Source: Candidatus Brocadiales bacterium
Lineage (GTDB): Bacteria; Planctomycetota; Brocadiia; Brocadiales; Bathyanammoxibiaceae
Length of the DNA stretch: 32,428 nt
Direction of reading: 5' to 3'
Assembly: GCA_035283825.1 (NCBI GenBank)
Contig: DATETB010000217.1
Coordinates: forward strand, 1 to 32,428
How positions within the stretch are numbered: the first letter of the stretch is position 1; every line of letters starts with the position of its first letter. Shown here piece after piece: positions 3,861 to 25,486 of this stretch. The translations under genes were made by a program, and so were the position numbers. Under the pieces are notes generated by a model. That model was not told the DNA's origin and searched no databases. It saw nothing but the letters and a program-made list of their open reading frames with translations.

Positions 3861-3873
3861 CCGCCTCAGGCGG
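3861..3873. repeat. CCGCCTCAGGCGG palindrome
   Basis: Exact 13-mer palindrome in intergenic sequence. Confidence 0.85.
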
Positions 3874-3969: not shown

Positions 3970-5178
3970 ATGTCAAAAGGACTTAGACCCATTAATGCCC
4001 TTGACACGGGAGCGCCCATCAAGGTACTCCATGTCATAACCAGGCTACTGCCTGGAGGTGCGGCAGACGGTACCCTAAACCTATGTCAGGGGTTAAAGGA
4101 GAGGGGCTTCCAGGTGGAGTTGGCCGCCGCCCCAGACCCAAAGATGGCTGAGACGGTCCAAAGAATGGGCATCCCTTTTCACTCTATCCCGGAGTTCAGG
4201 AGGGACATCAACCCCTTTTACGATACCTGGGCCTTCTTCAAACTGTATAAACTCATCCGTAGCGGTGGTTATCAGGTAGTCCACACCCATACCTCAAAGG
4301 CAGGCATACTGGGCAGACTTGCCGCAAGGCTTGCCCACACCCCTGTAATAGTCCATGCACCACGGGGGAGCATCTTTCACCCCGCGTTTTTTAGCCCCCT
4401 TGTCCAGTGGTTTTTCACCTTAATAGAAAGGTTAGCGGCCCCCTGGGCCGATAAAATTATAGCCATGTGCCAAAGCGAGGCCAGGGATTATCTGGGTCAT
4501 AGAATTGCCCCAAAAGAAAAGTACACCGTAATTGATAGCGGCATTAACCTGAATAGATTCAGGCATACCCGGGTTGACGCGGCAGAAAAGAAACAGGGGC
4601 TTGGTCTGCCCAGGGATTCTTTTGTGATAGGCATAATAGCCCGACTAAGTCCCGAAAAGGGACACTTTACGGCGCTGGAGGCCTTCCAGAAGGTATATAA
4701 AGAGGTCACAGACGCCTTCCTACTGATAGTAGGAGAGGGAGAATTAAAAGAGGCGATTCGTCAGAGAATAACCAGGATGGGCATTGGGGATAGGGTGGTA
4801 ATGACCGGTTACAGGACGGATATACCTGAGATTACCCGCACTCTTGACGTATCCCTCAACCCCTCCTTATGGGATTGTAGCCCCCGTTCCGTCCTGGAGG
4901 CCATGGTCTGCGGCATACCTGTAATTGCCACTAATGTGGGCGGTATACCGGAGATGGTATCAGACGGAGAAACGGGTCTGCTTGTCCCGGCAGGAGATGC
5001 AGAGGCTATGGCCCATTGTATCCTCCGCCTGAGGAGGGATGCAGGACTGGGGAAGAAACTAACCGGCCAGGCGGCCAAAAGGGGTCAAGGACTCTTTGAC
5101 CTGCCCAGGACCGTAGAGATGGTAACGCAGTTATACCTGGAGCTACTGACCGAGAAGGGATTTTTAGGAAAGACCTAA
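3970..5178 (+). CDS. glycosyltransferase family 4 (GT-B fold)
   Basis: 402 aa. N-terminal IKVLHVITRLLPGGA. C-terminal SVLEAMVCGIPVIATNVGGIPEMV...GETGLLV, an E-x7-E-type GT4 signature. Confidence 0.85.
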   Translation: MSKGLRPINALDTGAPIKVLHVITRLLPGGAADGTLNLCQGLKERGFQVELAAAPDPKMAETVQRMGIPFHSIPEFRRDINPFYDTWAFFKLYKLIRSGGYQVVHTHTSKAGILGRLAARLAHTPVIVHAPRGSIFHPAFFSPLVQWFFTLIERLAAPWADKIIAMCQSEARDYLGHRIAPKEKYTVIDSGINLNRFRHTRVDAAEKKQGLGLPRDSFVIGIIARLSPEKGHFTALEAFQKVYKEVTDAFLLIVGEGELKEAIRQRITRMGIGDRVVMTGYRTDIPEITRTLDVSLNPSLWDCSPRSVLEAMVCGIPVIATNVGGIPEMVSDGETGLLVPAGDAEAMAHCILRLRRDAGLGKKLTGQAAKRGQGLFDLPRTVEMVTQLYLELLTEKGFLGKT

Positions 5179-5185
5179 TAACCCT

Positions 5186-6082
5186 ATGTCAGTTAAGACC
5201 CGATGTAACTTTTGTAACTCTGATGATTACATTACCCTCACCCAGGTGATTGTCTCTCCAATCCCTGAGACCTCCTGGCTGGTACGATGTAAGAGATGCG
5301 GCTTTACCTATATAAACCCCAAACCCACCCTGGAGAGGGCGAGGGGGTTTTATGACCTTGAGTATTTTAAACCGGGAGAGGAGGCGCTCTGGAGGGAGGA
5401 CAGATACCCACTGTTTGAAAAGGTGCTCTCCCGTATTGAATCCACTATCCCAGAGGGTAGGCTCCTGGACATAGGTTGTGGCAAGGGCTACTTCCTTGAC
5501 CTGGCCAGGAAGAGGGGGTGGCAGGGAGTGGGGACTGACGTCTCCTCCACCGCCATACAGTTTGCCAGGGACACCCTGGGCCTTGAGGTCTATATGGCTG
5601 AATTGAAAGACCTGAAACTACCCGAGAACTCCTTTGATGTGGCTACCGCATGGAACGTACTGGACCAGATTTATGACCCGTGGGGTAACCTGAGGGAAAT
5701 CTTCAAGGCGCTAAGAAGCGGAGGTCTCATCGCCTTAAGGGTATCCAACCTACACTTCCACTACTACCTGCAACACCTCTCTAACCTAATCAATTCTATC
5801 CTGTCAGATAGTCTAAAGGTTACAGCCCCCACCGTCTTTCACCTATACATGTTTTCCCCGGGGACACTGGAGATGCTCCTAAGGGAGGCAGGTTTTGTGG
5901 ACATACGGGTAGAGAATTCCACCCTTGACCCTAACGTCCCAGCCCTTGTAAACCTTGCCGGGAAACCTGCCGAGGTCTTATTACGGAATACCACCTATCT
6001 TTTTGCCCAGACTATCTCTTATTTGTCGTTTGGAAATCTGCTAATAAGCCCTTCCCTGGTAGCTTTTGCCAAAAAGCCCTAG
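5186..6082 (+). CDS. class I SAM-dependent methyltransferase with an N-terminal Cys4 zinc-ribbon
   Basis: CNFCNS...CKRCG ribbon, motif I LLDIGCGKGYF, and post-I/II motifs. Starts 8 nt after the GT4 gene. Confidence 0.85.
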   Translation: MSVKTRCNFCNSDDYITLTQVIVSPIPETSWLVRCKRCGFTYINPKPTLERARGFYDLEYFKPGEEALWREDRYPLFEKVLSRIESTIPEGRLLDIGCGKGYFLDLARKRGWQGVGTDVSSTAIQFARDTLGLEVYMAELKDLKLPENSFDVATAWNVLDQIYDPWGNLREIFKALRSGGLIALRVSNLHFHYYLQHLSNLINSILSDSLKVTAPTVFHLYMFSPGTLEMLLREAGFVDIRVENSTLDPNVPALVNLAGKPAEVLLRNTTYLFAQTISYLSFGNLLISPSLVAFAKKP

Positions 6083-6206: not shown

Positions 6207-6234
6207 AGAATCCAGAATTCAGTAGTCAGAATTC
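6207..6234. repeat. heptamer array AGAATCC AGAATTC AGTAGTC AGAATTC
   Basis: Four tandem 7-mers. The same AGAATTC-type array recurs at 32382-32428. Confidence 0.8.
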
Positions 6235-6242
6235 TGGACGTT

Positions 6243-7415
6243 CTATATTCTGAATTCGCTTATGAGCCTCCAGGCGCTTTTAAACCTCCAAGCCATGCAC
6301 CTCAGGTAATGGACTATCCCTATCTCAGAACCATCAAGGGCCTCCATCTCCGCCAGGATATCCCTGGGGGGGAAGAAGGTCCGCCAGAGAAATCTCATCT
6401 TATTCATCACACCCTGGTTCATTGGGAAATATACCAGGTATTGTAAACCAGGTTTATGGATACCCCTATTGATAAAATAGACGAAGGCTCTTTCCTCCAG
6501 ACCAAGGCTTAAGGGCCTGAGTCTGTCTAAAACATGTTGTGGTACATCTGTATGCATTAAGAGTTTGGTTAGATAAAGCCCATAGTATAAAGGTCTGGAG
6601 AGACGGAATTCCAGGGCCTCCCGCACTAATTCCTCCCAGTCCAGCTGCCCCCTGTAGTGGTTAATTACCAGGTGTATATCCCACAGGAGGAGGAGCCTAT
6701 CGTAGGCGTGCCTCAGGGCATGGACGCTGAGGTGGAGGAGTTGATGATGCGGGGCAAGGATGAGGCTTCTATAGCCTTCTATCTCTACGGGTATAGCCTC
6801 CTGCCACAGCTTGTCTAATGAAATTCTGTGCAGGTTAGGGAACATCCCATTTTCAATGTGCCAGTGTACCTCCAGGGACAGGACGGACTCGTCACGGTTC
6901 AGGAGGATAATTCTATTAACATACGGACCAGCCATCCCATAGGGTTTATACCCCAGAGAATCTAGCCGCCCCGTTACCTTTTCCAGGTCTTTGCGATGGA
7001 TCAGGATGTCAAAATCCATGAGGGGCTTTGCCCCTAAATCGTTATAAACCGTAGGAAGTAGGGCGGCCCCCTTCAACAGGATGACAGGTACGTCCACTGC
7101 CTTAAGACATCGCACCAACTCTCTAAAACAATACTTATGCTGGACCAGGGTTAAGAAATACTCCCGCCTCAAGTCCTCCAGATACTCCTGGGGCAGGAGA
7201 CCGTTACGGCCCTTCAACTCCTTATATAATACAAGAGATAGCCCCTCCTCCCTGGCCGTCTTTATTATGCCTCCCCAATCGTAGGGTGCGTCCTGCCTGA
7301 AAGACGGCGGATTTGCAACTTGACGTGCCCTGGAGGCTGAGCATAGAAATATGAGTTGCAAGACGTCACTCTGACGTTCTGAGACAAGTCCTCTTCGGAT
7401 ATTGCTCATAGACAC
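6243..7415 (-). CDS. uncharacterised nucleotidyltransferase (PF14907 / NTP_transf_5-like)
   Basis: 390 aa. VPVILLKGAALLPTVYNDLGAKPLMDFDILIHRKDLEKVTGRLDSLGYKP matches my memory of the family core (LLKG...R.M.D.DILV...GY). Start is GTG 7415 or ATG 7409. Last gene of the RiPP-like operon. Confidence 0.7.
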   Translation of the reverse strand: MSMSNIRRGLVSERQSDVLQLIFLCSASRARQVANPPSFRQDAPYDWGGIIKTAREEGLSLVLYKELKGRNGLLPQEYLEDLRREYFLTLVQHKYCFRELVRCLKAVDVPVILLKGAALLPTVYNDLGAKPLMDFDILIHRKDLEKVTGRLDSLGYKPYGMAGPYVNRIILLNRDESVLSLEVHWHIENGMFPNLHRISLDKLWQEAIPVEIEGYRSLILAPHHQLLHLSVHALRHAYDRLLLLWDIHLVINHYRGQLDWEELVREALEFRLSRPLYYGLYLTKLLMHTDVPQHVLDRLRPLSLGLEERAFVYFINRGIHKPGLQYLVYFPMNQGVMNKMRFLWRTFFPPRDILAEMEALDGSEIGIVHYLRCMAWRFKSAWRLISEFRI

Positions 7416-7463: not shown

Positions 7464-8330
7464 CTAGCGATAGGCCTCCTCTGAGGTCTGTATCGTTGCT
7501 ATGGCAGGGGCGCTATATACGCCTATCCGCCTAAGGCGGACTAAGGCGGATCCGGGGCTTCGGCCTTGCTCACTACGGGCCTTGAACTTTCCTTTTATTG
7601 CCTTACCCCCTTCAATGAATTTTTCTAATGGGAACAAGGCGGCGAGCGAGATGAAACACCTTGGATAGGTCCGCCCTGTCAGGAGGATTTCCAGTGTCCG
7701 GGATAGTTCGGCCACCTTTTTCTGTAATTTGAGTACGTCAAGAGTTGGCAACACAGTCGGACATCCGGATGATAGTTCAAGTGGACTCTGGGTATTTTTC
7801 TCACACTCAGAATAATCTCTTGCATCTTCCCATATCCTGTGGGGGATACCGTATAGCCTGTCACTGGGGGGTCTGTATTCATATACCAGGCATCCACCTT
7901 GTTCGCCCGCAAAGGGGCATCTAACTTCTCTTCTAAGGAGGTGTCTTAAATATACTCTAGCATCTTGAACAACTCCGCCCAATTTCTTCTATATGGCCCC
8001 TGCAAACCTCTCAAGCCTTTCTATCTTTGGTATATCTCTCATGGCCCTTAGTCTTATGTCATGCCTTGTCTGTGGCTCAAGGGCCTGCATACCCATCCGT
8101 AGGTAATAGGCCCCTATGAAGTGGACAGAGACACCCCAACAACAGCACTCTGAACAGGCCAGTCCACAGGTTATCTTCAGGGAATGGGTGTGGACGTAGT
8201 CTTGAAACAGCCTGTCGGCCTCCGCCAGGAGGGACTTATATTCGGCCAGGATGGCCTGGACGGTGGTATTCACAGGTATTGTATGTGCTATTGTCATTAC
8301 AGTCAAGAAAGACAGCCTACGGTCTGTCAT
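7464..8330 (-). pseudogene. YkgJ/FliB-type CxxCxxCC zinc/iron-chelating domain protein (PF03692-like) interrupted by one in-frame TAG at 7989-7991
   Basis: Track ORFs 7989..8330 and 7464..7982 are in the same frame: (8330-7982) is divisible by 3. They are separated only by TAG-AAG-AAA. The upstream half has CGLACSECCC and the downstream half has RCPFAGEQGGCLVYEYRPP, which are the two halves of one domain. The second ORF has only a TTG and no SD. Confidence 0.6.
7527..7550. repeat. CCGCCTAAGGCGG palindrome plus duplicated half (ACTAAGGCGGA)
   Basis: Read as GSALVRLRRIG in the C-terminal tail of the YkgJ-like ORF. Confidence 0.8.
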
Positions 8331-9417: not shown

Positions 9418-10953
9418 CTATACCACTTCCAGGAGGCCTTTGCTCTGGAACTCCTCAATGGTCTTAGTAACGTCCCTTTCCACTTGAACGGGGTCGGTCT
9501 CCAGCACACTGACGACCTCCTCCGCTATCTCCTTGGGGGTATGATTCCCGTCGCATAACTCCCAGATAACGCCTGCCATAGGGTTCAGGTGGTGTAAATT
9601 ATGGTTCTTTGGGTCATAAATAACCACCTCCTCTTCCACAGTCTCATTGATGAGGTCTATCCTTATCTTTGGCCTTTCTTTCATTCCTTTTCCTCCATGC
9701 CCCTCCACAAGCCCGGTGTAGGGGTTATACTGACAGCGCGGGTCCTTGGCCAGCAGTCTACCAGTGGTAGTCAGCGCCAGGGCACGGCAGTTAAAACATC
9801 CATAACGCAGTTCACAATCTTTACAGGTTTCTACGTTGTCCAGGGTTATCTGCCACAGCTTCTGTACGGCCTGGCCTTGTATAATTTCCTTCAGACGCAT
9901 CTCAGGAAATCTGCCTACTGGCAGGCACCTGGCAAATATGCAAGGGTATACCACCCCTTCACTACTTATGACTATCTCGCTCTTCCAACAGGTAATCCAG
10001 GAGCAAGGCCTTTCGTCAAAAACCCTCCGTCTTCTTTCTGATGGGCGCGGCAGATTTGGCTCAGGCTTCCCCTTTCCCACCCCTTCACCCACGAGGCGCG
10101 ACTCTACCTCCCCCCTCCCGGTAGGCCGAACGTAATCGTGCCCAATCTCCTCCAGTCCCAATCCCTCCAGAAATTCTCTAGTGCCTTTGAGGTGAGTGAG
10201 GTTCCCCTGCATGAGGACGATATTGGCCCGTACAGGTATTTGGTAGGACAGGAGGGCCTTTATCCCTTCTACTGTCTGCCTGAAACTTCCAGGGCTTCTG
10301 GTAATGCCATCATGGGCCTCGGGGTCGTAAGAGTAAAAAGACACAGCTACCTTTACCCCTAGAGTGGCCCACTGTCGTAGTAGCCTATCTTCCAGGCGAG
10401 TGGCATTGGTAACGACCTCTATTCCTGTATAATGACAGGACCTTGCGTACTCAACAAGGTCAATAAGACCGGGGTAGAGGGTGGTTTCTCCTCCAGTTAG
10501 CTGTACGTGCCTTGCGCCAAGTTCCGAGCCTTCCTCAAGGATTTCCTTCCACTGTCTATGGGAAAGCTCGTTAGTGCGGCGTACCCCAGCCTCCGCATAG
10601 CAGTGGGCACAGGAGAGGTTGCAGGCATTGGTGAGCTCCAGCCACATGAAACTGAGTCCGGCAGGGCCAGATTGACAGGACAGGGATTTAACGATTCCTT
10701 CGGAGACCCCACTGTTATTATTGGACGTCTCGTACTGGGCAAGTGCGGGGTGTCTTACAAAGTACCCCCTGAGCACCTGGAGGGCCTTTCCACCAATGTA
10801 GGAAGGCTTAAGAGACTGTACCCCACCTAATACATCCACCACCCGGGGGTCTATGGTATATATTTCCCCCCTCCCCAGGTCATATAAGGCAGAATTGACA
10901 GGCCCTCTTACCAGGACGATGTGGCTTTTTGCGTGGTCAACCTCGTTAACCAT
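9418..10953 (-). CDS. radical SAM / SPASM-domain peptide maturase with a C-terminal PqqD-like (RRE) domain
   Basis: 511 aa. CNLSCAHCY (CxxxCxxC). SPASM-type Cys cluster C-x2-C-x5-C-x2-C (CKDCELRYGCFNC) plus upstream and downstream Cys. C-terminal VVIYDPKNHNLHHLNPMAGVIWELCDGNHTPKEIAEEV...IEEFQSKGLL is PqqD-like. Confidence 0.85.
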   Translation of the reverse strand: MVNEVDHAKSHIVLVRGPVNSALYDLGRGEIYTIDPRVVDVLGGVQSLKPSYIGGKALQVLRGYFVRHPALAQYETSNNNSGVSEGIVKSLSCQSGPAGLSFMWLELTNACNLSCAHCYAEAGVRRTNELSHRQWKEILEEGSELGARHVQLTGGETTLYPGLIDLVEYARSCHYTGIEVVTNATRLEDRLLRQWATLGVKVAVSFYSYDPEAHDGITRSPGSFRQTVEGIKALLSYQIPVRANIVLMQGNLTHLKGTREFLEGLGLEEIGHDYVRPTGRGEVESRLVGEGVGKGKPEPNLPRPSERRRRVFDERPCSWITCWKSEIVISSEGVVYPCIFARCLPVGRFPEMRLKEIIQGQAVQKLWQITLDNVETCKDCELRYGCFNCRALALTTTGRLLAKDPRCQYNPYTGLVEGHGGKGMKERPKIRIDLINETVEEEVVIYDPKNHNLHHLNPMAGVIWELCDGNHTPKEIAEEVVSVLETDPVQVERDVTKTIEEFQSKGLLEVV

Positions 10954-11005
10954 AGTAATCCATCACCCCTTCACTACGACCAGGACTTCGGCTCACGGCT
11001 GCGAC

Positions 11006-11197
11006 TCAGGATTTAGGGGGGCAAGCCCCGTTTTTGGGCTTACACTTTCGAGGACTACAGATGGCGAGGGCCTCACCACTTGCTACAATGGTGGTGATAA
11101 TGGGGATGCTGTATGCACCCAACTTTAGGAGCCCGCGGCGAGTCTTTTGTCTCTGTCCTTCATCCGCCTGAGGCGGATTGGTAGGTTCTTTGGACAC
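11006..11197 (-). CDS. candidate RiPP precursor: twin-arginine-type leader plus an 18-aa Cys/Lys/Pro-rich core ending in Ser
   Basis: GTG 11197 lies 7 nt after GGAAGGAGGG; the track's upstream GTG 11233 has no SD. Product is VSKEPTNPPQADEGQRQK-TRRGLLK-LGAYSIPIITTIVASG-EALA / ICSPRKCKPKNGACPPKS. Sits 52 nt upstream of the rSAM gene on the same strand. Confidence 0.6.
   Translation of the reverse strand: MSKEPTNPPQADEGQRQKTRRGLLKLGAYSIPIITTIVASGEALAICSPRKCKPKNGACPPKS
11164..11176. repeat. CCGCCTGAGGCGG palindrome inside the precursor leader
   Basis: Encodes N-P-P-Q-A-D-E in the n-region of the leader. Confidence 0.85.
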
Positions 11198-11259
11198 TAA
11201 GAGCCCTCCTTCCGTTGGACTGAACACATACACAAATAATTAAGAGACCTCTACAAGTT

Positions 11260-11370: not shown

Positions 11371-11383
11371 CCGCCTGAGGCGG
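11371..11383. repeat. CCGCCTGAGGCGG palindrome
   Basis: Exact 13-mer. A half copy CCTGAGGCGGA follows at 11416-11426, then palindrome TTCGCCTATGGCGAA at 11427-11441. Confidence 0.85.
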
Positions 11384-11476: not shown

Positions 11477-11557
11477 AGCTTAATTAAATTTATTGTACTA
11501 GCAATTGGAGGGCTGTCAAGGATAATTGCTTGAGCCAAAAATAGACATAGACCAGGG

Positions 11558-11603: not shown

Positions 11604-12971
11604 TTAATGTTTGCCCTCCTCTACGGGGCTCTTTATGAATAACTGGGGTTTTTCCAGGAGGTTCAGTATTTTACTTATTGGTTTCCCTTCTGAGTCTGCC
11701 ATAAGCTGTACGACTGGTCTGAGTGGGAAATCCCTGTGTACGGCGATTACCCTGGCCGTCTCCCCGGTGTTCAGCATCACGGTACTACCCACGGGGTACA
11801 CACCGAATTCCCTTATGAATGCCTTGGTAACCCTGCGGCCAAAAAAGGCCACCCCCTCCTCCAGTATCTCTCTCATGGCGGTGTGCGGGGGCAGTCCTGC
11901 GCGGACGGGGCGGTTGTGCGTCAGACTCTCGTAGGCCTCGGCCACTGCTATAATCTTTGCGTATTCGTGGATGGCCTCACCTTTTAATCTGTCCGGGTAA
12001 CCACTGCCGTCCTCCCTTTCATGGTGCTGTAGGACTACCTGTTTGAAGACCTCGTTTCTAATACCAAAACCCTCCAGAAACCTTTCGGTGTATAGGGGGT
12101 GCTTCTTTACTTCCTCATATTCACTTGCCTTCAGCTTCCTCGGCTGTTCTATGATGTGGCTCAACAGGACTAGACCTATGTCTCTCAAGAAGGAAATCAT
12201 CCCCAGTTCCATCAGGCCTGACTTGTTATAGTGCAGAGACACGCCTATTTTAATAGAAATGATGGTTACGTTTACCGCATTGGAGGCAAATTGACTATAG
12301 CTTCCGTCTGAAGCGGCCGCAAGCCTGACTATACTTTCATTCCCTAAGGTGAGGTCGTCTATGAGCTTCTCTATTGCCTTTCTTAACCTTTCTATTTCAA
12401 AGTTGTGCCCGTCCTTTATTTTATCAAAGACCTCCTGGGCAAGGACCACAAACTCATGGTAAAAGGCCTGGGCCTCTTTCCATTCGTCCTTTAATTCTTT
12501 AGTCACCTGCATTTGAGGGGTTGCCTTCCCTGCGGCCCCACTCTTCTGCACGGCGTCCATTTGTTTAGATTGTTCATGTATCATCTGCCCAATGGTGCTA
12601 AAACGGAGTCTCTCCTTTGGAGGTTCTTCCCGCTCCGGCGGGTTAAGCCCCTTTAACTGCACGTTTTCTTCTGGGGCGGTTGGGGCGGCAACCTCTTTTT
12701 CTCTCTCCAGGATATCTCTAGAACTTCTTAGACTCAATTTTGCCTTCTTTCCTCTCTTTTTTGTGATTTGAGACCCCCGAAAGAGTGCCTCAATAGACTT
12801 CCTGTATGAGTCATCTTGTGATATCCCCAGTAATTCATTCTTTTCATCTTCAGACATGACCCCTTTAAAAATCAGCAGTTTACGGTCAACGTCGTAACTT
12901 ATCTTCTCTTTAAGGTTACCGGGAAATTTTGCCTTTGAAGGCAGGTTTTCCAGTCTTTCTGAAATCTCCAT
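11604..12971 (-). CDS. HD-GYP domain protein (putative c-di-GMP phosphodiesterase) with an uncharacterised N-terminal region
   Basis: 455 aa with HHEREDGSGYPD and upstream HD residues. Its start ATG overlaps the ExeA stop (TAATG). Confidence 0.85.
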   Translation of the reverse strand: MEISERLENLPSKAKFPGNLKEKISYDVDRKLLIFKGVMSEDEKNELLGISQDDSYRKSIEALFRGSQITKKRGKKAKLSLRSSRDILEREKEVAAPTAPEENVQLKGLNPPEREEPPKERLRFSTIGQMIHEQSKQMDAVQKSGAAGKATPQMQVTKELKDEWKEAQAFYHEFVVLAQEVFDKIKDGHNFEIERLRKAIEKLIDDLTLGNESIVRLAAASDGSYSQFASNAVNVTIISIKIGVSLHYNKSGLMELGMISFLRDIGLVLLSHIIEQPRKLKASEYEEVKKHPLYTERFLEGFGIRNEVFKQVVLQHHEREDGSGYPDRLKGEAIHEYAKIIAVAEAYESLTHNRPVRAGLPPHTAMREILEEGVAFFGRRVTKAFIREFGVYPVGSTVMLNTGETARVIAVHRDFPLRPVVQLMADSEGKPISKILNLLEKPQLFIKSPVEEGKH

Positions 12972-13804
12972 TACTTTACGTACCGTGCCGCCAGCCTCAG
13001 GTCCTCTGCAACTGCCTTTACTATGGCGTCGCTCACCAGTTCAACCTGACTGCTGAATCCCATGAGGAGGCTCAAGTCACAGACATTATTTATAATCCTG
13101 GGGATGCCATTTGAGGCCCTGTATATCAACTCAATGGTGCTAACGTTGAATATCTCCCTGTTGCTGCCCGCCGCTTTCAGCCTGTAATCTACGTATCTTC
13201 CCACCTCTTCTCTGCTAAGGCCCGAGAGGTTGTATCTTATTGCTATACGTTGTGCCAGGGGCTCGTGTTGCTTGATCCTTTGTGCCAGTTCCGGCTGGCC
13301 CAGAAGGACGATGGTCACCAGGAAGGCGTCGTTCTTCTGGAAATTCAGTAGCAGCCTGATTTCCTCAAAGATGGCCTCGTCCTTGATGACATGGGCCTCG
13401 TCAATTATGAGTACACAGTATCGGCTTTTTTCGTTACTCTCAAATACAATGTCCTCCAGTCTATGGAGCAAATCTAGCTTACTTGTTGCCTGAGGCAGGC
13501 TTTCAAGCCCTCCGAACTGATATATCAGTTCTCGTAATAGGTCATCAACGGTGAGGGCCGGGTTTACTATTACGGCTATATTGTAGTTCTTTTCCTCTCT
13601 AGAGAGTATTCTCACCAGCATCCGGCTGAGGAGGGTCTTGCCGGCGCCAATATCCCCTGTAATCATAACAGCCCCCTTCCTCTCCTTTACCCCGTATAAT
13701 AGCCTGGTGAGGGCCTCCTCGTGGCCTGCCGAGTAAAAGAAGAAATCCGGGTTAGGGGTGTTTTCGAAGGGTTTCTTTTTTAGTCCCCAATAGTCCAGGT
13801 ACAT
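12971..13804 (-). CDS. ExeA/GspA-like AAA ATPase
   Basis: 277 aa. N-terminus MYLDYWGLKKKPFENTPNPDFFFYS is typical of the ExeA family. Walker A GDIGAGKT and Walker B LIIDEAH. Confidence 0.8.
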   Translation of the reverse strand: MYLDYWGLKKKPFENTPNPDFFFYSAGHEEALTRLLYGVKERKGAVMITGDIGAGKTLLSRMLVRILSREEKNYNIAVIVNPALTVDDLLRELIYQFGGLESLPQATSKLDLLHRLEDIVFESNEKSRYCVLIIDEAHVIKDEAIFEEIRLLLNFQKNDAFLVTIVLLGQPELAQRIKQHEPLAQRIAIRYNLSGLSREEVGRYVDYRLKAAGSNREIFNVSTIELIYRASNGIPRIINNVCDLSLLMGFSSQVELVSDAIVKAVAEDLRLAARYVK

Positions 13805-14828
13805 GGCCTGTTCCCGCCCTCTTTAAGTCCACCAATTTAACGATAACTGTAAATATAAGAAAAAGTTGGAGCAAAAGCAATAGTGCATCTATCGGCCTTG
13901 AGTTCCTGAGGGTTACTGCGCCTATAGATATTACAAGACTAATGAGATAGATAAGTAGCACTGCCTCCCGCCTGCTAAGGCCTATGGCTACCAGCCTATG
14001 CGGGAGATGGTCAACCCCGTGGTAGATAATCGCCTCTTTTATGGTATGCGTAGTCCCTTTCAAAAATCTTATGATAATAGTGTACAAAAAGTCAAGGATA
14101 ATTACACCTAATATTAGTATGGGTATTATGACTGCCTTGATGGGATGTGTAGACCATTCCCCCATAATCCCAATGGCGGCAAGGATATAACCCAGGAAAA
14201 AGGAGCCTGAATCACCTAGAAAGATGTTGGCGCCATTGTAGTTGTACCTCAAGAAGGCAAGGGTTGAGCCCATAAGGGCACAGGCCAGCAGACCCCAGCC
14301 CCACTGGCAGGTCTGCACGGCCACCAGCATATAGGCGAGGCCGGCTATAAAGGCAAGGCCGGACGCAAGCCCATCCATGGTATCGGAGGCATTAAAGGCA
14401 CTTACCACCCCTGTTATCCATATGAGGGTAAAAAGTAAGTTGAGGTAATAATTGTGAAATAATGTCAGGATTATCCCGTATCTGGAGAGGAGACATGTTA
14501 TACCCAGGAGCAGGAGTAATTTTATCGTGGCGGGCAACCCCCATATATCGTCTACCAGACCTATGGCGATTACAAGGGCGCCGCCCAGCAGGATACCAAG
14601 CTGTTTGTCGGCAAGGAGGTCAGCGTTGTAGAGCAAAGGGGCCGTAAAGCCCAGGAATACGGCAACCCCTCCCAGGCGTGGGGTAGGTCTTGCGTGGGGT
14701 TTTGTCTTCCCAGGGTGGTCTATTGCCCCGATCTTCTCGGCTATAACCCTTACGATAGGTGTTGCCACCAGGGTGATTAATAGGGCCATCCCAAAGATTT
14801 TACCGCAGGCTACTAATGGATCTGGCAT
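13752..14828 (-). CDS. polyprenyl-phosphate sugar-1-phosphate transferase, MraY/WecA family (Glycos_transf_4)
   Basis: 358 aa polytopic membrane protein with VDDIWGL and NASDTMDGLA motifs. Its 3' end overlaps the ExeA start by 53 nt. Confidence 0.85.
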   Translation of the reverse strand: MPDPLVACGKIFGMALLITLVATPIVRVIAEKIGAIDHPGKTKPHARPTPRLGGVAVFLGFTAPLLYNADLLADKQLGILLGGALVIAIGLVDDIWGLPATIKLLLLLGITCLLSRYGIILTLFHNYYLNLLFTLIWITGVVSAFNASDTMDGLASGLAFIAGLAYMLVAVQTCQWGWGLLACALMGSTLAFLRYNYNGANIFLGDSGSFFLGYILAAIGIMGEWSTHPIKAVIIPILILGVIILDFLYTIIIRFLKGTTHTIKEAIIYHGVDHLPHRLVAIGLSRREAVLLIYLISLVISIGAVTLRNSRPIDALLLLLQLFLIFTVIVKLVDLKRAGTGHVPGLLGTKKETLRKHP

Positions 14829-14858
14829 CTGGACTCTTTGTCCTTAACCTCTTGTTTT

Positions 14859-14887
14859 GTAGGGGCACGTTGCAACGTGCCCCCTAC
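14859..14887. repeat. REP-like hairpin GTAGGGGCACGTTGCAACGTGCCCCCTAC
   Basis: Same core as 496-522. The CTA at 14884-14886 is the WbqC TAG stop. Confidence 0.85.
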
Positions 14888-15594
14888 AACTGACAACTGA
14901 CAGCCGACCCCAGGAGTATCTCAAGACTCCTCTCACCTTCATTAAATAGGAGGTCAATAGTGGACATGTTGGGCATAAAAGGCTCGTGGACCTGCCTGTA
15001 TTTGGGGTGAGGAAATTCCTGGAACAGGCACTCTATTCCCTTTTCCCGCATCTGGTTGACGTCCACATAGTCTTTCCCATGCATACCGTACAAGTGTTTG
15101 TCAGCACCCAACTTTTCACACATGTCTATGACGAATTCTGCGCCCTTCCCCTCAATCCCTAAGGTAGAGGCCTTGAGGACCCTGGTCTTTATGCCCAATG
15201 CCTCTTTTATATAGAGTATCAGGGCCTCGTTCAGGTCTGACAATCTTTCCCACTCTCTATTATAGGTCTCGTGGAAGAAATCGGCGTATCTGTTAAAATA
15301 GGGGGCCTTCTGGTAGTTAAGCCACATAGATTTCCAGTGCTTTCGCCTCCAGTGGATGGTGTTATTGACGTAGACGTCTATAATCTTCTGGGTGGACTTC
15401 CCCTTGGTGAGGACTGGAACGGTGAGCCACATCCATCCTTCCTGTGTGCGGATCCTGTTGCGGTTCATCCACCCAAAGAGGCCGCCCTTCACGAATTGTA
15501 CGTCGTCCATGAGAACAAAGGTATCGCATAGGGTCATCTTATGGAAGAACCCGGAATAAGGAAGATAATTGGGCTGGTGCCCTGCTATCATCAT
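14884..15594 (-). CDS. WbqC family protein
   Basis: 236 aa. N-terminal IAGHQPNYLPYSGFFHKM is characteristic of WbqC-like proteins. ATGA overlap with the upstream DegT gene. Confidence 0.75.
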   Translation of the reverse strand: MMIAGHQPNYLPYSGFFHKMTLCDTFVLMDDVQFVKGGLFGWMNRNRIRTQEGWMWLTVPVLTKGKSTQKIIDVYVNNTIHWRRKHWKSMWLNYQKAPYFNRYADFFHETYNREWERLSDLNEALILYIKEALGIKTRVLKASTLGIEGKGAEFVIDMCEKLGADKHLYGMHGKDYVDVNQMREKGIECLFQEFPHPKYRQVHEPFMPNMSTIDLLFNEGERSLEILLGSAVSCQL

Positions 15595-16667
15595 GACCCC
15601 GAAAACACCTCCCCAACGTTCCTGGCTACGTATTCCACCTGTTCCTGTCTCAGGGAGGGGTAAATGGGTATGGAGACCAGGGTACGGTGGGCCTCCTCCG
15701 CATTGGGGAACTCCCCATTGTCCAGGTGTAGGTACTGGTGAAGGGGCTTGAAGACGGGCCTCTTGGATTCTACCCCCCTGGCCTCCAGACTCTTAATTGT
15801 TTCCTCTACGGTCTGCCTTGTCTTGAGGACGTACCTGTAAAAGGCGTGGGTAGAACCCTCCCTCCTGTAGGGTATTTCCAGACCATAATCCTTTAGTATC
15901 CTGTCGTAGGTAGCCGCTATCTCACGTCTCCTTGAGATAAAGTAGTCTAACTTTTGCATCTGGCTCAGTCCCATGGCGGCTTCTATGTCCGTCATCCTGT
16001 AGTTGTATCTTACCTGATAATCCTCTCTCTCGTCATACTCTCTGAGGTCCCTTGCCTTTTCCATCAGGGTGGAGGAATTGGAGGCAAGCATGCCCCCGTG
16101 TCCTGTGGCAATCATCTTGGTGGCGTAAAAGGAGAAGATGGAGGCCGTCCCCAGGCCTCCCAACCTCCTTCCCACCCCGGAGGGGTCCGCCTTAGGCGGA
16201 CCGCCAAGGCTATGGGCACAGTCCTCAATAATTGGAATTTCCAACTCTAACAGACTATTTACGTCAGCAGACTGACCAAAGGTATGGACGACAATAAGGG
16301 CCTTTGTCTTTGGATTGGCCTGCTTCTTGACTTCTTTTAGGTCTATATTCAGGTCTTGCCCATCTACGTCAACCACCCTGGGCGTGGCCCCCACGTAGAG
16401 GATGGGGTTGAGCACTGCCGTGCATACGTAACTGGGGACGATGACCTCGTCCCTTGTCCCTACGCCCATGGCCAGGAGCAGGAGGTGCAAGGCCGATGAA
16501 CCGGAGTTGGTGGCGAGGGTATGCTCCACCCCCAGATAGTCCTTAAATACCCCCTCCAGCTCCTCCACCTTCGGTCCCTGGGCAATGTAGTTGGAGCTAA
16601 GCACTTCCCTTACCATGTCTAACTCCTCTTTCTCTAACGTGGGCAAGGAGTGAGGTATCTTCCTCAT
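15591..16667 (-). CDS. DegT/DnrJ/EryC1/StrS-family PLP-dependent sugar aminotransferase
   Basis: IEDCAHSLG...FSFYATKMI contains the PLP-Lys region. I prefer ATG 16667, which gives an ATGA overlap with the PIG-L stop and N-terminus MRKIPHSLPTLEKEE. The track start is GTG 16685. Confidence 0.85.
   Translation of the reverse strand: MRKIPHSLPTLEKEELDMVREVLSSNYIAQGPKVEELEGVFKDYLGVEHTLATNSGSSALHLLLLAMGVGTRDEVIVPSYVCTAVLNPILYVGATPRVVDVDGQDLNIDLKEVKKQANPKTKALIVVHTFGQSADVNSLLELEIPIIEDCAHSLGGPPKADPSGVGRRLGGLGTASIFSFYATKMIATGHGGMLASNSSTLMEKARDLREYDEREDYQVRYNYRMTDIEAAMGLSQMQKLDYFISRRREIAATYDRILKDYGLEIPYRREGSTHAFYRYVLKTRQTVEETIKSLEARGVESKRPVFKPLHQYLHLDNGEFPNAEEAHRTLVSIPIYPSLRQEQVEYVARNVGEVFSGS
16187..16199. 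repeat. CCGCCTTAGGCGG palindrome in frame within the DegT CDS
   Basis: Extended palindrome GGTCCGCCTTAGGCGGACC at 16184-16202, read as G-P-P-K-A-D-P. Confidence 0.85.
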
Positions 16668-17386
16668 ATTACCATGCGATAACACACGAAGGCCTCGGCG
16701 GCCTCTACAGCTATCTCGCTCCCCCGCAGTCTTGCCAGCCTTTCTATGTTTTCCAGACTATAATTATGATTGGGCTCCTTCAACTGGGAACGGTGACACC
16801 TTATTGCCCCCAGTTTTTTGTCCAGGTACCGGGATATGTCTACGTAGAGGTTAGGTTGAAAGACCTTGTCTGAACTCCAGCACAGGGTGGGGCATTCGTA
16901 AGAGACGACTACTTGCTGGAAGGCCTTGTATTGGGGCAGGGCTGGGCGGCACGCCGTAAACCCTGCATAAAACACGGCGGCATGGTCCTGGTTATATGAG
17001 GGTGCGGGGAGGGCTATCATGGTGGGGCTTATCTTGTCTATAGAAACACTGCTCTCCCTCTCTATCACGCTTACCAGGTCTCGTCTGGGGATGGCGTCAA
17101 GACGGAGGTATTTCTCGTCGTCCGTGTAGACTATGTCATAACCGTCCAGTTTCAGGAATTCTGCCGCCGCCAGAAACTCGTCCTTCCGTATCTGCGCCGG
17201 GACTACGCCGTCCACCCCATAGTGCTTCAGACTCCCAATGGACATCACCATGACATAGACCTCTCCACCCATGTCCTTTATCTTGGCTATAAGGCCCGCG
17301 CACCCCAGAGACTCGTCGTCCGAATGGGCGGCTAGTACCAGGAGTCTCTGCCTTGACAGCAATTTTTCGGCCAGGTCTTTGTGCAT
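16664..17386 (-). CDS. PIG-L/LmbE-family N-acetyl-sugar deacetylase
   Basis: 240 aa. LVLAAHSDDESLGCAG matches the AHPDDE-type motif. Confidence 0.85.
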   Translation of the reverse strand: MHKDLAEKLLSRQRLLVLAAHSDDESLGCAGLIAKIKDMGGEVYVMVMSIGSLKHYGVDGVVPAQIRKDEFLAAAEFLKLDGYDIVYTDDEKYLRLDAIPRRDLVSVIERESSVSIDKISPTMIALPAPSYNQDHAAVFYAGFTACRPALPQYKAFQQVVVSYECPTLCWSSDKVFQPNLYVDISRYLDKKLGAIRCHRSQLKEPNHNYSLENIERLARLRGSEIAVEAAEAFVCYRMVI

Positions 17387-24630: not shown

Positions 24631-25059
24631 GTGGCAGAGACAGTTTCGATAGAAAGGCTTAAAGAATACTTTAGCAAGAGGCAGGACGTGGCCTTCGCCT
24701 TCCTATTCGGTTCGCAGGCCAGGGGCGTGGCAACTAAACTGTCGGACGTTGACATTGCCGTATATTTTTATCCGAAAAGGAGATATCCACTGGAATACGA
24801 GAAAGATGTCTTCTACCCCTCTGAGGATGAGATACATACAGACCTTGAGCGGCTACTAAAGAGGGAAGTAGAGTTACTAATTTTAAACAGGGTATCTTCA
24901 ACAATCACCGCAAGTGCTATAAGGGGTATACCCCTGGTGATAAGTGATTGGGGGCTATACCTTGATTTCATGCTGGTCGTAACAAGAGTAGCAGAAGACT
25001 TCATGGACCTTGTGATAAACGATTATAAAGAGAAGACCTCCATTGAAAAGAGAAGTTAA
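24631..25059 (+). CDS. mntA: MntA-type nucleotidyltransferase antitoxin
   Basis: GTG start. FLFGSQARG...SDVDIAVYF is the GSx10-11DxD minimal nucleotidyltransferase motif. Confidence 0.8.
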   Translation: MAETVSIERLKEYFSKRQDVAFAFLFGSQARGVATKLSDVDIAVYFYPKRRYPLEYEKDVFYPSEDEIHTDLERLLKREVELLILNRVSSTITASAIRGIPLVISDWGLYLDFMLVVTRVAEDFMDLVINDYKEKTSIEKRS

Positions 25060-25486
25060 ATTTAGGCTCATAAAACATATAACTTTTCTGGAAAAGGAGC
25101 TGGAGGATTATAAAATCTTCCAAAACCTTTCATGGAAAGAGTATTCCGAGGAAAGAAGCAAACGAAGGGATGTAGAAAGATGGATTGAAAACATCATAAA
25201 CTCGTCCATAGATATTGCCAGGATAATCTTAACCTCGGAGGGGAAAACACCACTTGCAGATACATATAAAGATATTGTTCGTTCCCTTCTTGTCGTGCCA
25301 GGTTTTGATGAAGCACTTATGAATAATCTTTCCGAATGGACACCGCTAAGGAATGTCATTTCCCATGAATATTTGGATATTAGATGGTCTTCAATAAAAA
25401 AGTTTATAAGTGAAACCGAACCCCTATATAAGAACTTTCTTGGGCAGGTCAAGAAGTACCTAGAGAGGCAATTACTAGCCGAGTAG
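25043..25486 (+). CDS. hepT: HepT-type HEPN (DUF86) toxin
   Basis: RNVISHEYLDIRW contains R-x4-H-x-Y. Overlaps mntA by 17 nt. Confidence 0.8.
   Translation: MKREVKFRLIKHITFLEKELEDYKIFQNLSWKEYSEERSKRRDVERWIENIINSSIDIARIILTSEGKTPLADTYKDIVRSLLVVPGFDEALMNNLSEWTPLRNVISHEYLDIRWSSIKKFISETEPLYKNFLGQVKKYLERQLLAE

Follow-up and report, generated by a model that had tools for sequence, protein, structure and literature searches.

The window analyzed here, a 32,428-nucleotide (nt) stretch of contig DATETB010000217.1 from a Candidatus Brocadiales bacterium, contains a short open reading frame (ORF) that the original prediction, made from the sequence alone, had singled out as the precursor of a ribosomally synthesized and posttranslationally modified peptide (RiPP) with a leader resembling a twin-arginine translocation (Tat) signal. 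The ORF lies on the minus strand and runs from 11197 to 11006, with 63 codons and a TGA stop, and the reverse complement of this segment translates to VSKEPTNPPQADEGQRQKTRRGLLKLGAYSIPIITTIVASGEALAICSPRKCKPKNGACPPKS. Each of the predicted elements can be recognized in it. The motif T-R-R-G-L-L-K spans residues 19–25 and agrees with the Tat consensus at six of seven positions (Phe is replaced by Leu), the A-x-A cleavage-type site is A-L-A at residues 43–45, and the cationic 18-residue tail is exactly as described: it ends in Ser, contains four Pro and four Lys, and has its Cys at positions 2, 7, and 14. All three Cys of this candidate core belong to C-x-P units. The other genes of the cassette encode a radical S-adenosylmethionine (rSAM)/SPASM enzyme fused to a PqqD domain, which is a RiPP recognition element (RRE), an HPr-kinase-like protein, and a protein of the NTP_transf_5 family (Table 1).

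A conserved peptide gene and its cassette

The GTG start codon of the precursor gene (11197–11195) is preceded, after a 6-nt spacer (CTCTTA), by the Shine-Dalgarno sequence GGAAGGAGGG (11213–11204), and an alignment with the related Brocadiales-like contigs L001 and L004 reveals that GTG start, Shine-Dalgarno, and 5' untranslated region (5'UTR) are all kept. The 43 nt around the predicted promoter are near-identical in these two contigs and directly adjoin the 5'UTR there, whereas in the window an insertion of about 245 nt of repetitive extragenic palindrome (REP)-like sequence, absent from L001 and L004, separates the −10 box from the conserved 5'UTR. A 75-residue version starting at 11233 was rejected because homologues begin with M/V-SKEPT and the Shine-Dalgarno precedes the GTG at 11197. 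We likewise rejected a plus-strand reading of 11006–11197, in which the frame is interrupted, and the overlapping plus-strand ORF 10853–11128, since conservation tracks the minus-strand frame.

A word-indexed search among 5.8 billion proteins yielded an identical protein, from a Candidatus Brocadiales metagenome-assembled genome, and nine homologues of 56–62 residues. When these are aligned, the leader (MSKEPT..EEQRQKTRRRLLKLGAYSIPIITTIVASGEALA) is nearly invariant, and the core is hypervariable apart from an invariant Lys and the C-terminal Ser. The window, L001, and L004 share at least 28 of the 31 residues in the leader block, and the changes in leader codons are mostly silent, with 13 synonymous and 3 nonsynonymous changes relative to L001, and 6 and 2, respectively, relative to L004. 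Within the cores, alignment is limited to Cys, Pro, Lys, and the last Ser. This ORF is thus a genuine gene, conserved far beyond chance, whose leader is under purifying selection. As for the conserved core positions that the original prediction had proposed to look for, the terminal Ser is found in 10 of 10 close homologues, but Cys47 is missing in several members.

Profile searches of Pfam and NCBIfam with the window peptide gave no match even at E ≤ 10. Nevertheless, the peptide belongs to a sizeable family, since a profile search identified at least 240 family clusters at E ≤ 0.01, all of them small, lacking a Pfam domain, and named "hypothetical." In a phmmer search of 1.84 billion representatives, the leader was found on small peptides only and never on enzymes, one spurious match aside; the top match, P0011 (2434 residues), was discarded as a low-complexity repeat protein. 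In addition, 80 loci, none of them a close Brocadiales relative, were fetched from a genome collection among the matches listed for the rSAM profile, and all their small ORFs were searched with the peptide hidden Markov model (HMM). In this search, small ORFs with twin-arginine (RR) leaders sit directly upstream of rSAM/SPASM/PqqD genes in other phyla, namely in Myxococcota (L025, L029) and Zetaproteobacteria (L022, L024, L028, and L026, which has two copies). The family therefore spreads over Brocadiales, Myxococcota, Zetaproteobacteria, and other groups. The zetaproteobacterial members (L024, L028, and the tandem precursor genes of L026 at 5692–5997 and 6208–6609) have long Lys/Arg-rich tails after S-C-x-P-S-A-C-x-P-C, and one member has a (GNQGQ)n low-complexity spacer; upstream of these zetaproteobacterial genes, the NTP_transf_5 gene is divergently transcribed.

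The gene neighborhood is conserved as well. In the window, the precursor gene ends 52 nt upstream of the rSAM/SPASM/PqqD gene, an adjacency also seen in L001–L005, L025, L026, L028, L029, L090, L091, L096, and L098. The complete four-gene cassette (peptide, rSAM/SPASM/PqqD, kinase, and NTP_transf_5) recurs in the Brocadiales-like contigs L001–L004, L090, L096, and L098, the last of which is from Scalinduaceae, and the kinase and NTP_transf_5 genes accompany the peptide and rSAM/SPASM/PqqD genes in Myxococcota and Zetaproteobacteria too. Lack of conservation in related loci, or a better conserved small ORF in homologous clusters, would have spoken against the proposed precursor; we found instead that the peptide is always beside the rSAM, kinase, and NTP_transf_5 genes and that no rival small ORF in the related cassettes is better conserved. 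In every case there is an RRE of the PqqD type, which is part of the rSAM enzyme or a protein of its own. Four loci from other phyla (L010, L011, L031, and L044) encode an rSAM enzyme and a kinase with no detectable Tat-like peptide, L010 starting inside the rSAM gene and L011 and L044 having other architectures, which indicates that the wider enzyme superfamily also uses other precursors. In the distant cassettes of L044 (6182–10148, Dehalococcoidales) and L011 (6262–9164, Nitrospirota), a stand-alone PqqD is encoded upstream of the rSAM enzyme, and L044 also contains a transglutaminase-like ORF.

Table 1. Features of the precursor gene and its cassette, in window coordinates
Feature	Position	Strand	Basis or remark
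Predicted sigma-70-type promoter of the precursor gene, TTGACA-16-TACAAT	11492–11519	−	11/12 consensus positions
REP-like palindromic insertion, specific to the window genome	11244–11489		GTAGGGGCGGTTCGC-type hairpins and a CCGCCTGAGGCGG copy at 11371–11383
Shine-Dalgarno GGAAGGAGGG	11204–11213	−	Read from sequence; conserved in L001 and L004
Precursor peptide gene	11006–11197	−	Translation, homologues, synonymous-biased divergence
Palindromic repeat CCGCCTGAGGCGG, in frame in the n-region, encoding P-P-Q-A	11164–11176		Extra PPQAD only in P0001–P0003, not in P0004–P0010
Leader, residues 1–45: n-region, twin-arginine motif, Y-x-x-P hydrophobic stretch, A-L-A	11063–11197	−	Near-invariant among close homologues
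T-R-R-G-L-L-K, residues 19–25	11123–11143	−	Family consensus [A/T]-R-R-[R/H]-[L/F]-L-K
Core peptide ICSPRKCKPKNGACPPKS, three C-x-P units and C-terminal Ser	11009–11062	−	Hypervariable among homologues; C-x-P enriched in the family
Radical SAM/SPASM enzyme with C-terminal PqqD (RRE), 511 residues	9418–10953	−	Pfam Radical_SAM E=1.3e-24, SPASM 1.3e-6, PqqD 3.7e-14
HPr-kinase-like P-loop kinase, 288 residues	8540–9406	−	NCBIfam HprK_rel_A E=1.1e-32, 113 bits vs. cut-off 200
YkgJ-like (CxxCxxCC) gene with in-frame TAG (7989–7991) and leader-like tail GVYSAPAIATIQTSEEAYR	7464–8330	−	Accessory; missing from most related cassettes
NTP_transf_5 protein, 390 residues, last cassette gene	6243–7415	−	Pfam PF14907 E=5.7e-46

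The original prediction had also pointed to a repeat in the leader's n-region, and a copy of CCGCCTNAGGCGG indeed occupies n-region codons at 11164–11176. Seven copies of this 13-mer, against 0.02 expected, are found in the window (starts at 3861, 6179, 7527, 8355, 11164, 11371, and 16187). Two of them lie inside coding sequence and leave the frame intact, one encoding PPQA in the precursor and the other RLRRI in the tail of the YkgJ-like protein. The same type of palindromic repeat is present in L007 and L096.

Putative export and recognition features of the leader

To describe the leader we used three sets of sequences: 122 family members for motif statistics, an alignment of 100 diverse members, and 24 members inspected by eye. 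The motif RR-x-[L/F]-L-[K/R/Q]-x3-4-Y-x-x-P is present in all 122 members. The residue before RR is Ala in 64 and Thr in 46 of them (110/122), the one after it is Arg in 96 and His in 18, the hydrophobic position is Leu in 101 and Phe in 21, the next is Leu in all 122, and the last is Lys in 111 and Arg in 10. Among the diverse members, R20, R21, L24, Y29, and P32 are invariant, and K25, C47, and P49 are nearly so. Almost every member has its RR among residues 1–35 (median position 17), and myxococcal members have a perfect RRHFLK. The twin arginine and L-L-K noted in the window peptide are therefore invariant, or nearly so, throughout a family that covers several phyla.

The rest of the leader also resembles a Tat signal. 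In the window peptide, the uncharged stretch after RR, LGAYSIPIITTIVASG, is 16 residues long with a mean Kyte-Doolittle hydropathy of 1.43, which fits the Tat criterion of an uncharged, moderately hydrophobic region (h-region) of at least 13 residues. For the family, the longest uncharged run after RR has a median length of 19.5 residues and a median hydropathy of 1.15 (n = 122), and in the 24 curated members it measures 15–27 residues with mean hydropathies of 0.9–2.0; nine Escherichia coli reference Tat signals range from 0.98 to 1.60. The predicted A-x-A site generalizes too, since by eye a small-x-small site closes the hydrophobic stretch in 24 of 24 members (ALA, AHA, ARA, AWA, AQA, ADA, ASA, AYA, VHA, and others), in c-regions that are otherwise unrelated. 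An automated search for A/V/S-x-A or small-x-A/G found such a site in 105 of 122 members, and we ascribe the misses to crude parsing of the h-region. Among the 100 diverse members, the only recurrent NCBIfam matches are to Tat models, TIGR02811 in 20 and TIGR01409 in 7, all of them weak and below cut-off, and the relative L025 scores 15.0 bits against the cut-off of 16.7 of a curated Tat HMM. The absence of a dedicated protease and transporter, which export by a general pathway had been invoked to explain, was also borne out: there is no peptidase, no ABC or MFS exporter, and no Tat gene anywhere in the 32-kb window, and no protease or exporter in the cassettes that we examined in any phylum. 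Export through Tat, with cleavage by signal peptidase I, is thus supported at the level of sequence, the curated Tat HMMs excepted.

Three observations weigh against a leader devoted to Tat export. First, two curated Tat HMMs (PF10518 and TIGR01409) give no match to the window peptide at E ≤ 10. Second, Y29 and P32, which are not needed for Tat targeting, are invariant inside the h-region. Third, a leader-like sequence without an intact RR is found at the C terminus of a YkgJ-like protein in L096 and in the window, where it cannot be a signal peptide. The window copy of this YkgJ-like gene is split by an in-frame TAG and ends in SALVRLRRIGVYSAPAIATIQTSEEAYR; the close relative L096 (2905–3786) has an intact 293-residue orthologue with Lys at the TAG position and the tail IRQRLLKLGIYSAPAIATIQTTEEAYR. 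Both proteins thus terminate in the leader mimic LLKLGIYSAPAIATIQTTEEAYR, without a core, and the tail matches the peptide HMM with E = 0.041. The RR is broken in each case (RQR in L096, repeat-coded in the window), but LLKLGxYSxP is kept, and this tail argues that, independently of export, the hydrophobic motif plays a role or has a history of its own. It may be the fossil of a fusion with a peptide gene, or a leader mimic that docks on PqqD. In L007, a YkgJ-like gene is followed 70 nt later by a separate, Cys-free family peptide, P0013.

These same observations, together with the constant presence of a PqqD domain, favor an alternative in which the leader would be a recognition sequence for PqqD and nothing else, a Tat look-alike, with the peptide either processed by an unlinked protease and exporter or retained in the cytoplasm. 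We regard this as unlikely, because it leaves several features unaccounted for. All 122 members have the RR, and each position of [A/T]RR[R/H][L/F]LK agrees with the Tat consensus. The RR is lost precisely in the YkgJ-like tail, where export is impossible and LLKLGxYSxP survives, a pattern that fits a division of the leader into RR for export and LLK...Y..P for recognition. Moreover, small-x-small sites recur in unrelated c-regions, the cassettes examined contain no protease or exporter, and the recurrent curated matches are to Tat models only. Rather than replacing export, the invariance of Y29 and P32 points to a second function, and the h-region probably doubles as the PqqD recognition sequence, a role absent from the original prediction. 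A β-strand-prone stretch such as L-K-L-G-A-Y-S-I-P-I-I would be the kind of sequence that RREs bind.

The leader could also be a Sec-type signal, or an uncleaved signal anchor inserted in the membrane by Sec/YidC and leaving the modified tail tethered. Such a role would suit the positive charge at the N terminus and, after it, the uncharged stretch with its median length of 19.5 residues in the family (16 in the window), and RiPPs with Sec signals exist, bufferins for example (PMC11626156). We nonetheless consider it very unlikely. The window h-region, broken by Ser, Thr, Pro, and Gly, has a low hydropathy for a Sec signal or an anchor; strictly invariant RR and L-L-K are not a Sec feature; the small-x-small sites argue for cleavage; and Sec is expected to be a poor route for cargo that is cross-linked or phospho-glycosylated (PMC11626156).

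Even less probable, to the point of being rejected here, is a lipoprotein-type peptide cleaved by signal peptidase II at L-A-I/C, with a diacylglycerol on Cys47. There is a precedent in the DAG-RiPPs (PMC13056109), a Cys does lie one residue past A-L-A, and members of the close clade repeatedly have L-A-[V/T/I]-C. However, the residue at −1 is Ile, Val, or Thr and not Gly, Ala, or Ser, so the window L-A-I-C fails the lipobox [LVI][ASTVI][GAS]C. The Cys is missing in P0008, P0010, P0013, P0178, and the L092 peptides, and in other subgroups it is found 3–20 residues past the small-x-small site, with Gln, Gly, or Lys at −3.

Core motifs, candidate tailoring enzymes, and natural variants

The core, although hypervariable, has a clear signature. 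Downstream of Y-x-x-P, 355 of 481 Cys (74%) are in C-x-P, whereas shuffled sequences give 47 ± 6 (about 10%, with a maximum of 67 in 500 shuffles), and C-x-P-x-x-C-x-P is found in 82 of 122 peptides. The enzyme encoded next to the peptide has the hallmarks of an rSAM/SPASM protein. In 15 homologues, the three Cys of its CxxxCxxC motif (C111, C115, and C118) and seven SPASM Cys (C322, C338, C377, C380, C386, C389, and C407) are invariant. Its best solved relatives are SkfB (E = 1.3e-18) and PqqE, and all the curated maturase models score far below cut-off, with 122 bits against 395 for TIGR04053, the best of them, 88 against 625 for StsB, 79 against 300 for SkfB, and 73 against 850 for AlbA. 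In the kinase, H102, G122, and the P-loop K123 are invariant among 14 orthologues, and D140 is near-invariant and followed by E141. A structure search gave no informative solved relatives for the kinase or the NTP_transf_5 protein.

The C-x-P signature bears on the chemistry of the rSAM step. The original prediction had noted, as a weaker alternative, a resemblance between the core and the sulfatase motif C-x-P-x-R; C-x-P has turned out to be the defining core motif, but the strict form with Arg is not conserved and was rejected. A modification like that performed by anaerobic sulfatase-maturating enzymes (anSMEs), in which C-x-P Cys would be oxidized to formylglycine or another Cβ-oxidized product, would be compatible with Tat export. 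anSMEs are SPASM enzymes, and the predominant C-x-P corresponds to the first half of the sulfatase signature, which is complete in P0004, P0006, and P0009. In addition, the cores have no conserved acceptor for a thioether other than Pro. Such chemistry is decidedly unlikely all the same. Of 10 close homologues, only 3 have the Arg at +4, which myxococcal and zetaproteobacterial types lack, and the window motifs (C-S-P-R-K, C-K-P-K-N, and C-P-P-K-S) do not match C/S-x-P/A-x-R. The top 25 NCBIfam matches of the rSAM enzyme and its matches in the PDB at E ≤ 0.001, which are led by SkfB and PqqE, include no anSME, and the enzyme stands no nearer to anSMEs than to other SPASM enzymes. anSMEs are not known to use RRE domains. 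The rSAM step on repeated C-x-P units may be a reaction type that has not yet been described.

As for the terminal Ser, which the original prediction had recognized as the class of residue targeted by such kinases, it is invariant in the close clade, and 46 of the 47 Brocadiales-type peptides end in Ser (30) or Thr (16), the other one ending in Asn. It also persists, alongside the kinase and NTP_transf_5 genes, in two cassettes that lack the rSAM enzyme. In one of them, L092 (4441–7308), synteny with the window extends over the upstream AAA_22 and HD_5 genes; this locus encodes a stand-alone 85-residue PqqD, the kinase, two peptides that lack Cys and end in KKGVS, and NTP_transf_5. The other, L097 (87–3060), is organized likewise, and its Cys-free peptide, P0178, ends in GGSVS. 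The Cys-free peptides of these two loci are acidic/basic, and in L097 a small MJ0235-like gene pair lies between PqqD and the kinase. Conversely, every peptide encoded beside an rSAM enzyme of the window subfamily has at least one Cys. Because Cys-free peptides occur in rSAM-less cassettes and Cys-containing ones with the rSAM enzyme, we infer that PqqD, kinase, and NTP_transf_5 would form a base module acting on the terminal Ser/Thr, with the rSAM/SPASM enzyme as an add-on for the C-x-P Cys. Some members do not conform to this division of labor. The myxococcal and zetaproteobacterial types keep the kinase and NTP_transf_5 but have no terminal Ser/Thr, 20 of 21 myxococcal-type peptides ending in Gly and a third group being mixed, so the kinase target is not universally the C terminus. 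In L094, moreover, a Cys-free peptide is paired with a different, 351-residue rSAM enzyme.

Beyond the cassette, glycan-biosynthesis genes are found on both sides (3970–6082, plus strand; 13752–17386, minus strand). They encode a GT4 glycosyltransferase, a SAM methyltransferase, a Glycos_transf_4 protein (WecA/MraY-like), WbqC, a DegT aminotransferase, and a PIG-L deacetylase, and it is possible that they are linked to the NTP_transf_5 step, for example through sugar supply. The methyltransferase and GT4 genes, which are convergent with the cassette, were not counted as part of it, being syntenic in L001–L004 and L090 but not in L092 and L098. Neither were the genes for an HD_5 protein (HD-GYP-like) and an AAA_22 ATPase directly upstream of the precursor promoter (11604–13804, minus strand), a pair that precedes the cassette in L092 and in the P0010 contig but not in L001–L003. 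These two proteins could be regulators, or their position mere lineage synteny. Further away, at 24631–25486 on the plus strand, a pair resembling MNT/HepT toxin-antitoxin systems consists of a Polbeta/NTP_transf_2 nucleotidyltransferase gene and an overlapping gene for a HepT-like RNase.

Proposed pathway and comparison with known systems

Taken together, these findings lead us to propose, with moderate confidence, that the leader is both a PqqD docking site and a Tat signal, and that the peptide would be modified in the cytoplasm, exported by Tat, and released as an 18-mer by signal peptidase I. The precursor would be translated from a transcript of its own strong promoter, and the L-L-K-x-x-x-Y-x-x-P stretch of its leader would dock in the cytoplasm on the PqqD domain fused to the rSAM enzyme. 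The rSAM/SPASM enzyme would then modify the C-x-P Cys, a thioether-type cross-link being our default guess, and the HPr-kinase-like enzyme would phosphorylate the C-terminal Ser63. By analogy with PsmN of pseudomycoidin, NTP_transf_5 might extend the phosphate by nucleotidylation or glycosylation. The modified peptide, which would no longer be linear, would leave by way of the housekeeping Tat translocase, and a cut after A-L-A45 by signal peptidase I would produce the cationic 18-mer ICSPRKCKPKNGACPPKS outside the cytoplasm. This route agrees with a remark in the bufferin paper that Sec should handle macrocyclic or bulky RiPPs poorly (PMC11626156). TatA/B, TatC, and signal peptidase I are all encoded by the anammox bacterium K. 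stuttgartiensis, and in anammox bacteria the Tat system is predicted to reside in the anammoxosome membrane (PMC2881027). If that prediction holds here, the product could be delivered into the anammoxosome.

As a rule, a RiPP pathway depends on a leader protease and an exporter of its own. RiPPs that rely on Sec or lipoprotein signals instead (bufferins and DAG-RiPPs) have been recognized only recently (PMC11626156, PMC13056109). A Tat leader would solve the poor passage of bulky or cyclized peptides through Sec, since Tat moves folded cargo. A full-text search of about 8 million papers gave no example of a natural RiPP routed through Tat. What it did bring up was a speculative remark, along with a failed attempt in a phage-display paper, and there was nothing relevant on PF14907 or the HprK-related kinase. 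Tentatively, then, this could be the first natural RiPP family with a bifunctional twin-arginine leader, one that recruits the rSAM enzyme, kinase, and NTP_transf_5 and then hands the cross-linked, phosphate-bearing product to Tat and signal peptidase I, with no dedicated protease or pump. If so, Tat would be a third general-secretion route in RiPP biology, and a small ORF with RR-x-[L/F]-L-K-x3-4-Y-x-x-P beside a PqqD domain would provide a handle for genome mining. Such a finding would further bring into view an unannotated family with no fewer than 240 members in anammox Planctomycetota, Myxococcota, and iron-oxidizing Zetaproteobacteria, whose natural variants, with or without the rSAM enzyme and with or without Cys, make the division of labor directly testable.

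Among known systems, the bioinformatically defined HPr-rel-A system (TIGR04352/TIGR04353) and SynChlorMet cassette (ScmC/D/E/F; Haft) share with the window an HPrK-related kinase and a PqqD chaperone, and in the case of SynChlorMet also rSAM/SPASM proteins, two in number. The best or near-best NCBIfam matches of the window proteins are to these models, but every score is below cut-off (HprK_rel_A, 113/200; PqqD_rel_X, 26/35; ScmD, 39/100; ScmE, 83/400; ScmF, 73/400; ScmC, 17/125), and on this basis the window system is best described as a relative, not a member, of either. The full-text search found no paper on the HPr-rel-A system or on SynChlorMet. As for canonical Tat signals (E. coli EfeB, for example), the window leader has in common with them [S/T/A]-R-R-x-[F/L]-L-K in the first 35 residues, an uncharged, moderately hydrophobic stretch of at least 13 residues, and A-x-A. 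It differs in that the cargo is 18 residues and not a folded cofactor enzyme, that Tyr and Pro are invariant in the h-region, and that HMM thresholds are not reached.

Sactipeptides (SkfA/SkfB and subtilosin/AlbA) and ranthipeptides likewise combine a maturase containing CxxxCxxC and a seven-Cys SPASM domain with an RRE and a Cys core. However, their RRE is N-terminal while that of the window enzyme is C-terminal, and the window system is set apart by repeated C-x-P without a conserved acceptor, a Tat-like leader, and the added kinase and NTP_transf_5.

The terminal step evokes lasso peptides. HPrK-like kinases phosphorylate the C-terminal Ser of linear lasso precursors by means of a catalytic His-Lys-Asp-Asp set, and the nucleotidyltransferase-like PsmN adds hexoses to phospho-Ser (PMC9266682). 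Like paeninodin (PadeK/ThcoK) and pseudomycoidin (PsmK/PsmN), the window system has an HPr-kinase-like kinase, a PqqD-type RRE, a nucleotidyltransferase-like protein, and a conserved C-terminal Ser; its kinase keeps the His, Lys, and Asp, and its PqqD gives subthreshold matches to lasso PqqD chaperones. In contrast to lasso clusters, the cassette is without an Asn-synthase-like cyclase, a B2 transglutaminase protease, and an ABC exporter, it has an rSAM/SPASM enzyme and a signal-peptide-like leader, and its NCBIfam scores are all below cut-off. We therefore rejected a lasso peptide identity, the cyclase and the B2 leader protease being absent from both the window and the conserved cassette.

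In its economy of export, the window system is reminiscent of the RiPPs made with multinuclear nonheme iron-dependent oxidative (MNIO) enzymes, namely bufferins, chryseobasin/oxazolins, and DAG-RiPPs, in which a general-secretion-type signal replaces the leader, protease, and exporter, and whose Cys-rich cores undergo their modification in the cytoplasm, ahead of export (PMC11626156, PMC13056109). Those peptides have Sec (signal peptidase I) or lipoprotein (signal peptidase II) signals and MNIO/DUF692 enzymes, whereas the window family has an invariant twin-arginine motif, an rSAM/SPASM enzyme, a kinase, and NTP_transf_5; it would be a RiPP with a signal peptide, whose tailoring involves a radical SAM enzyme and phospho-Ser. 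Finally, the bufferin signal peptide is dispensable for modification, whereas the window leader has an additional invariant Y-x-x-P and is always accompanied by a PqqD.

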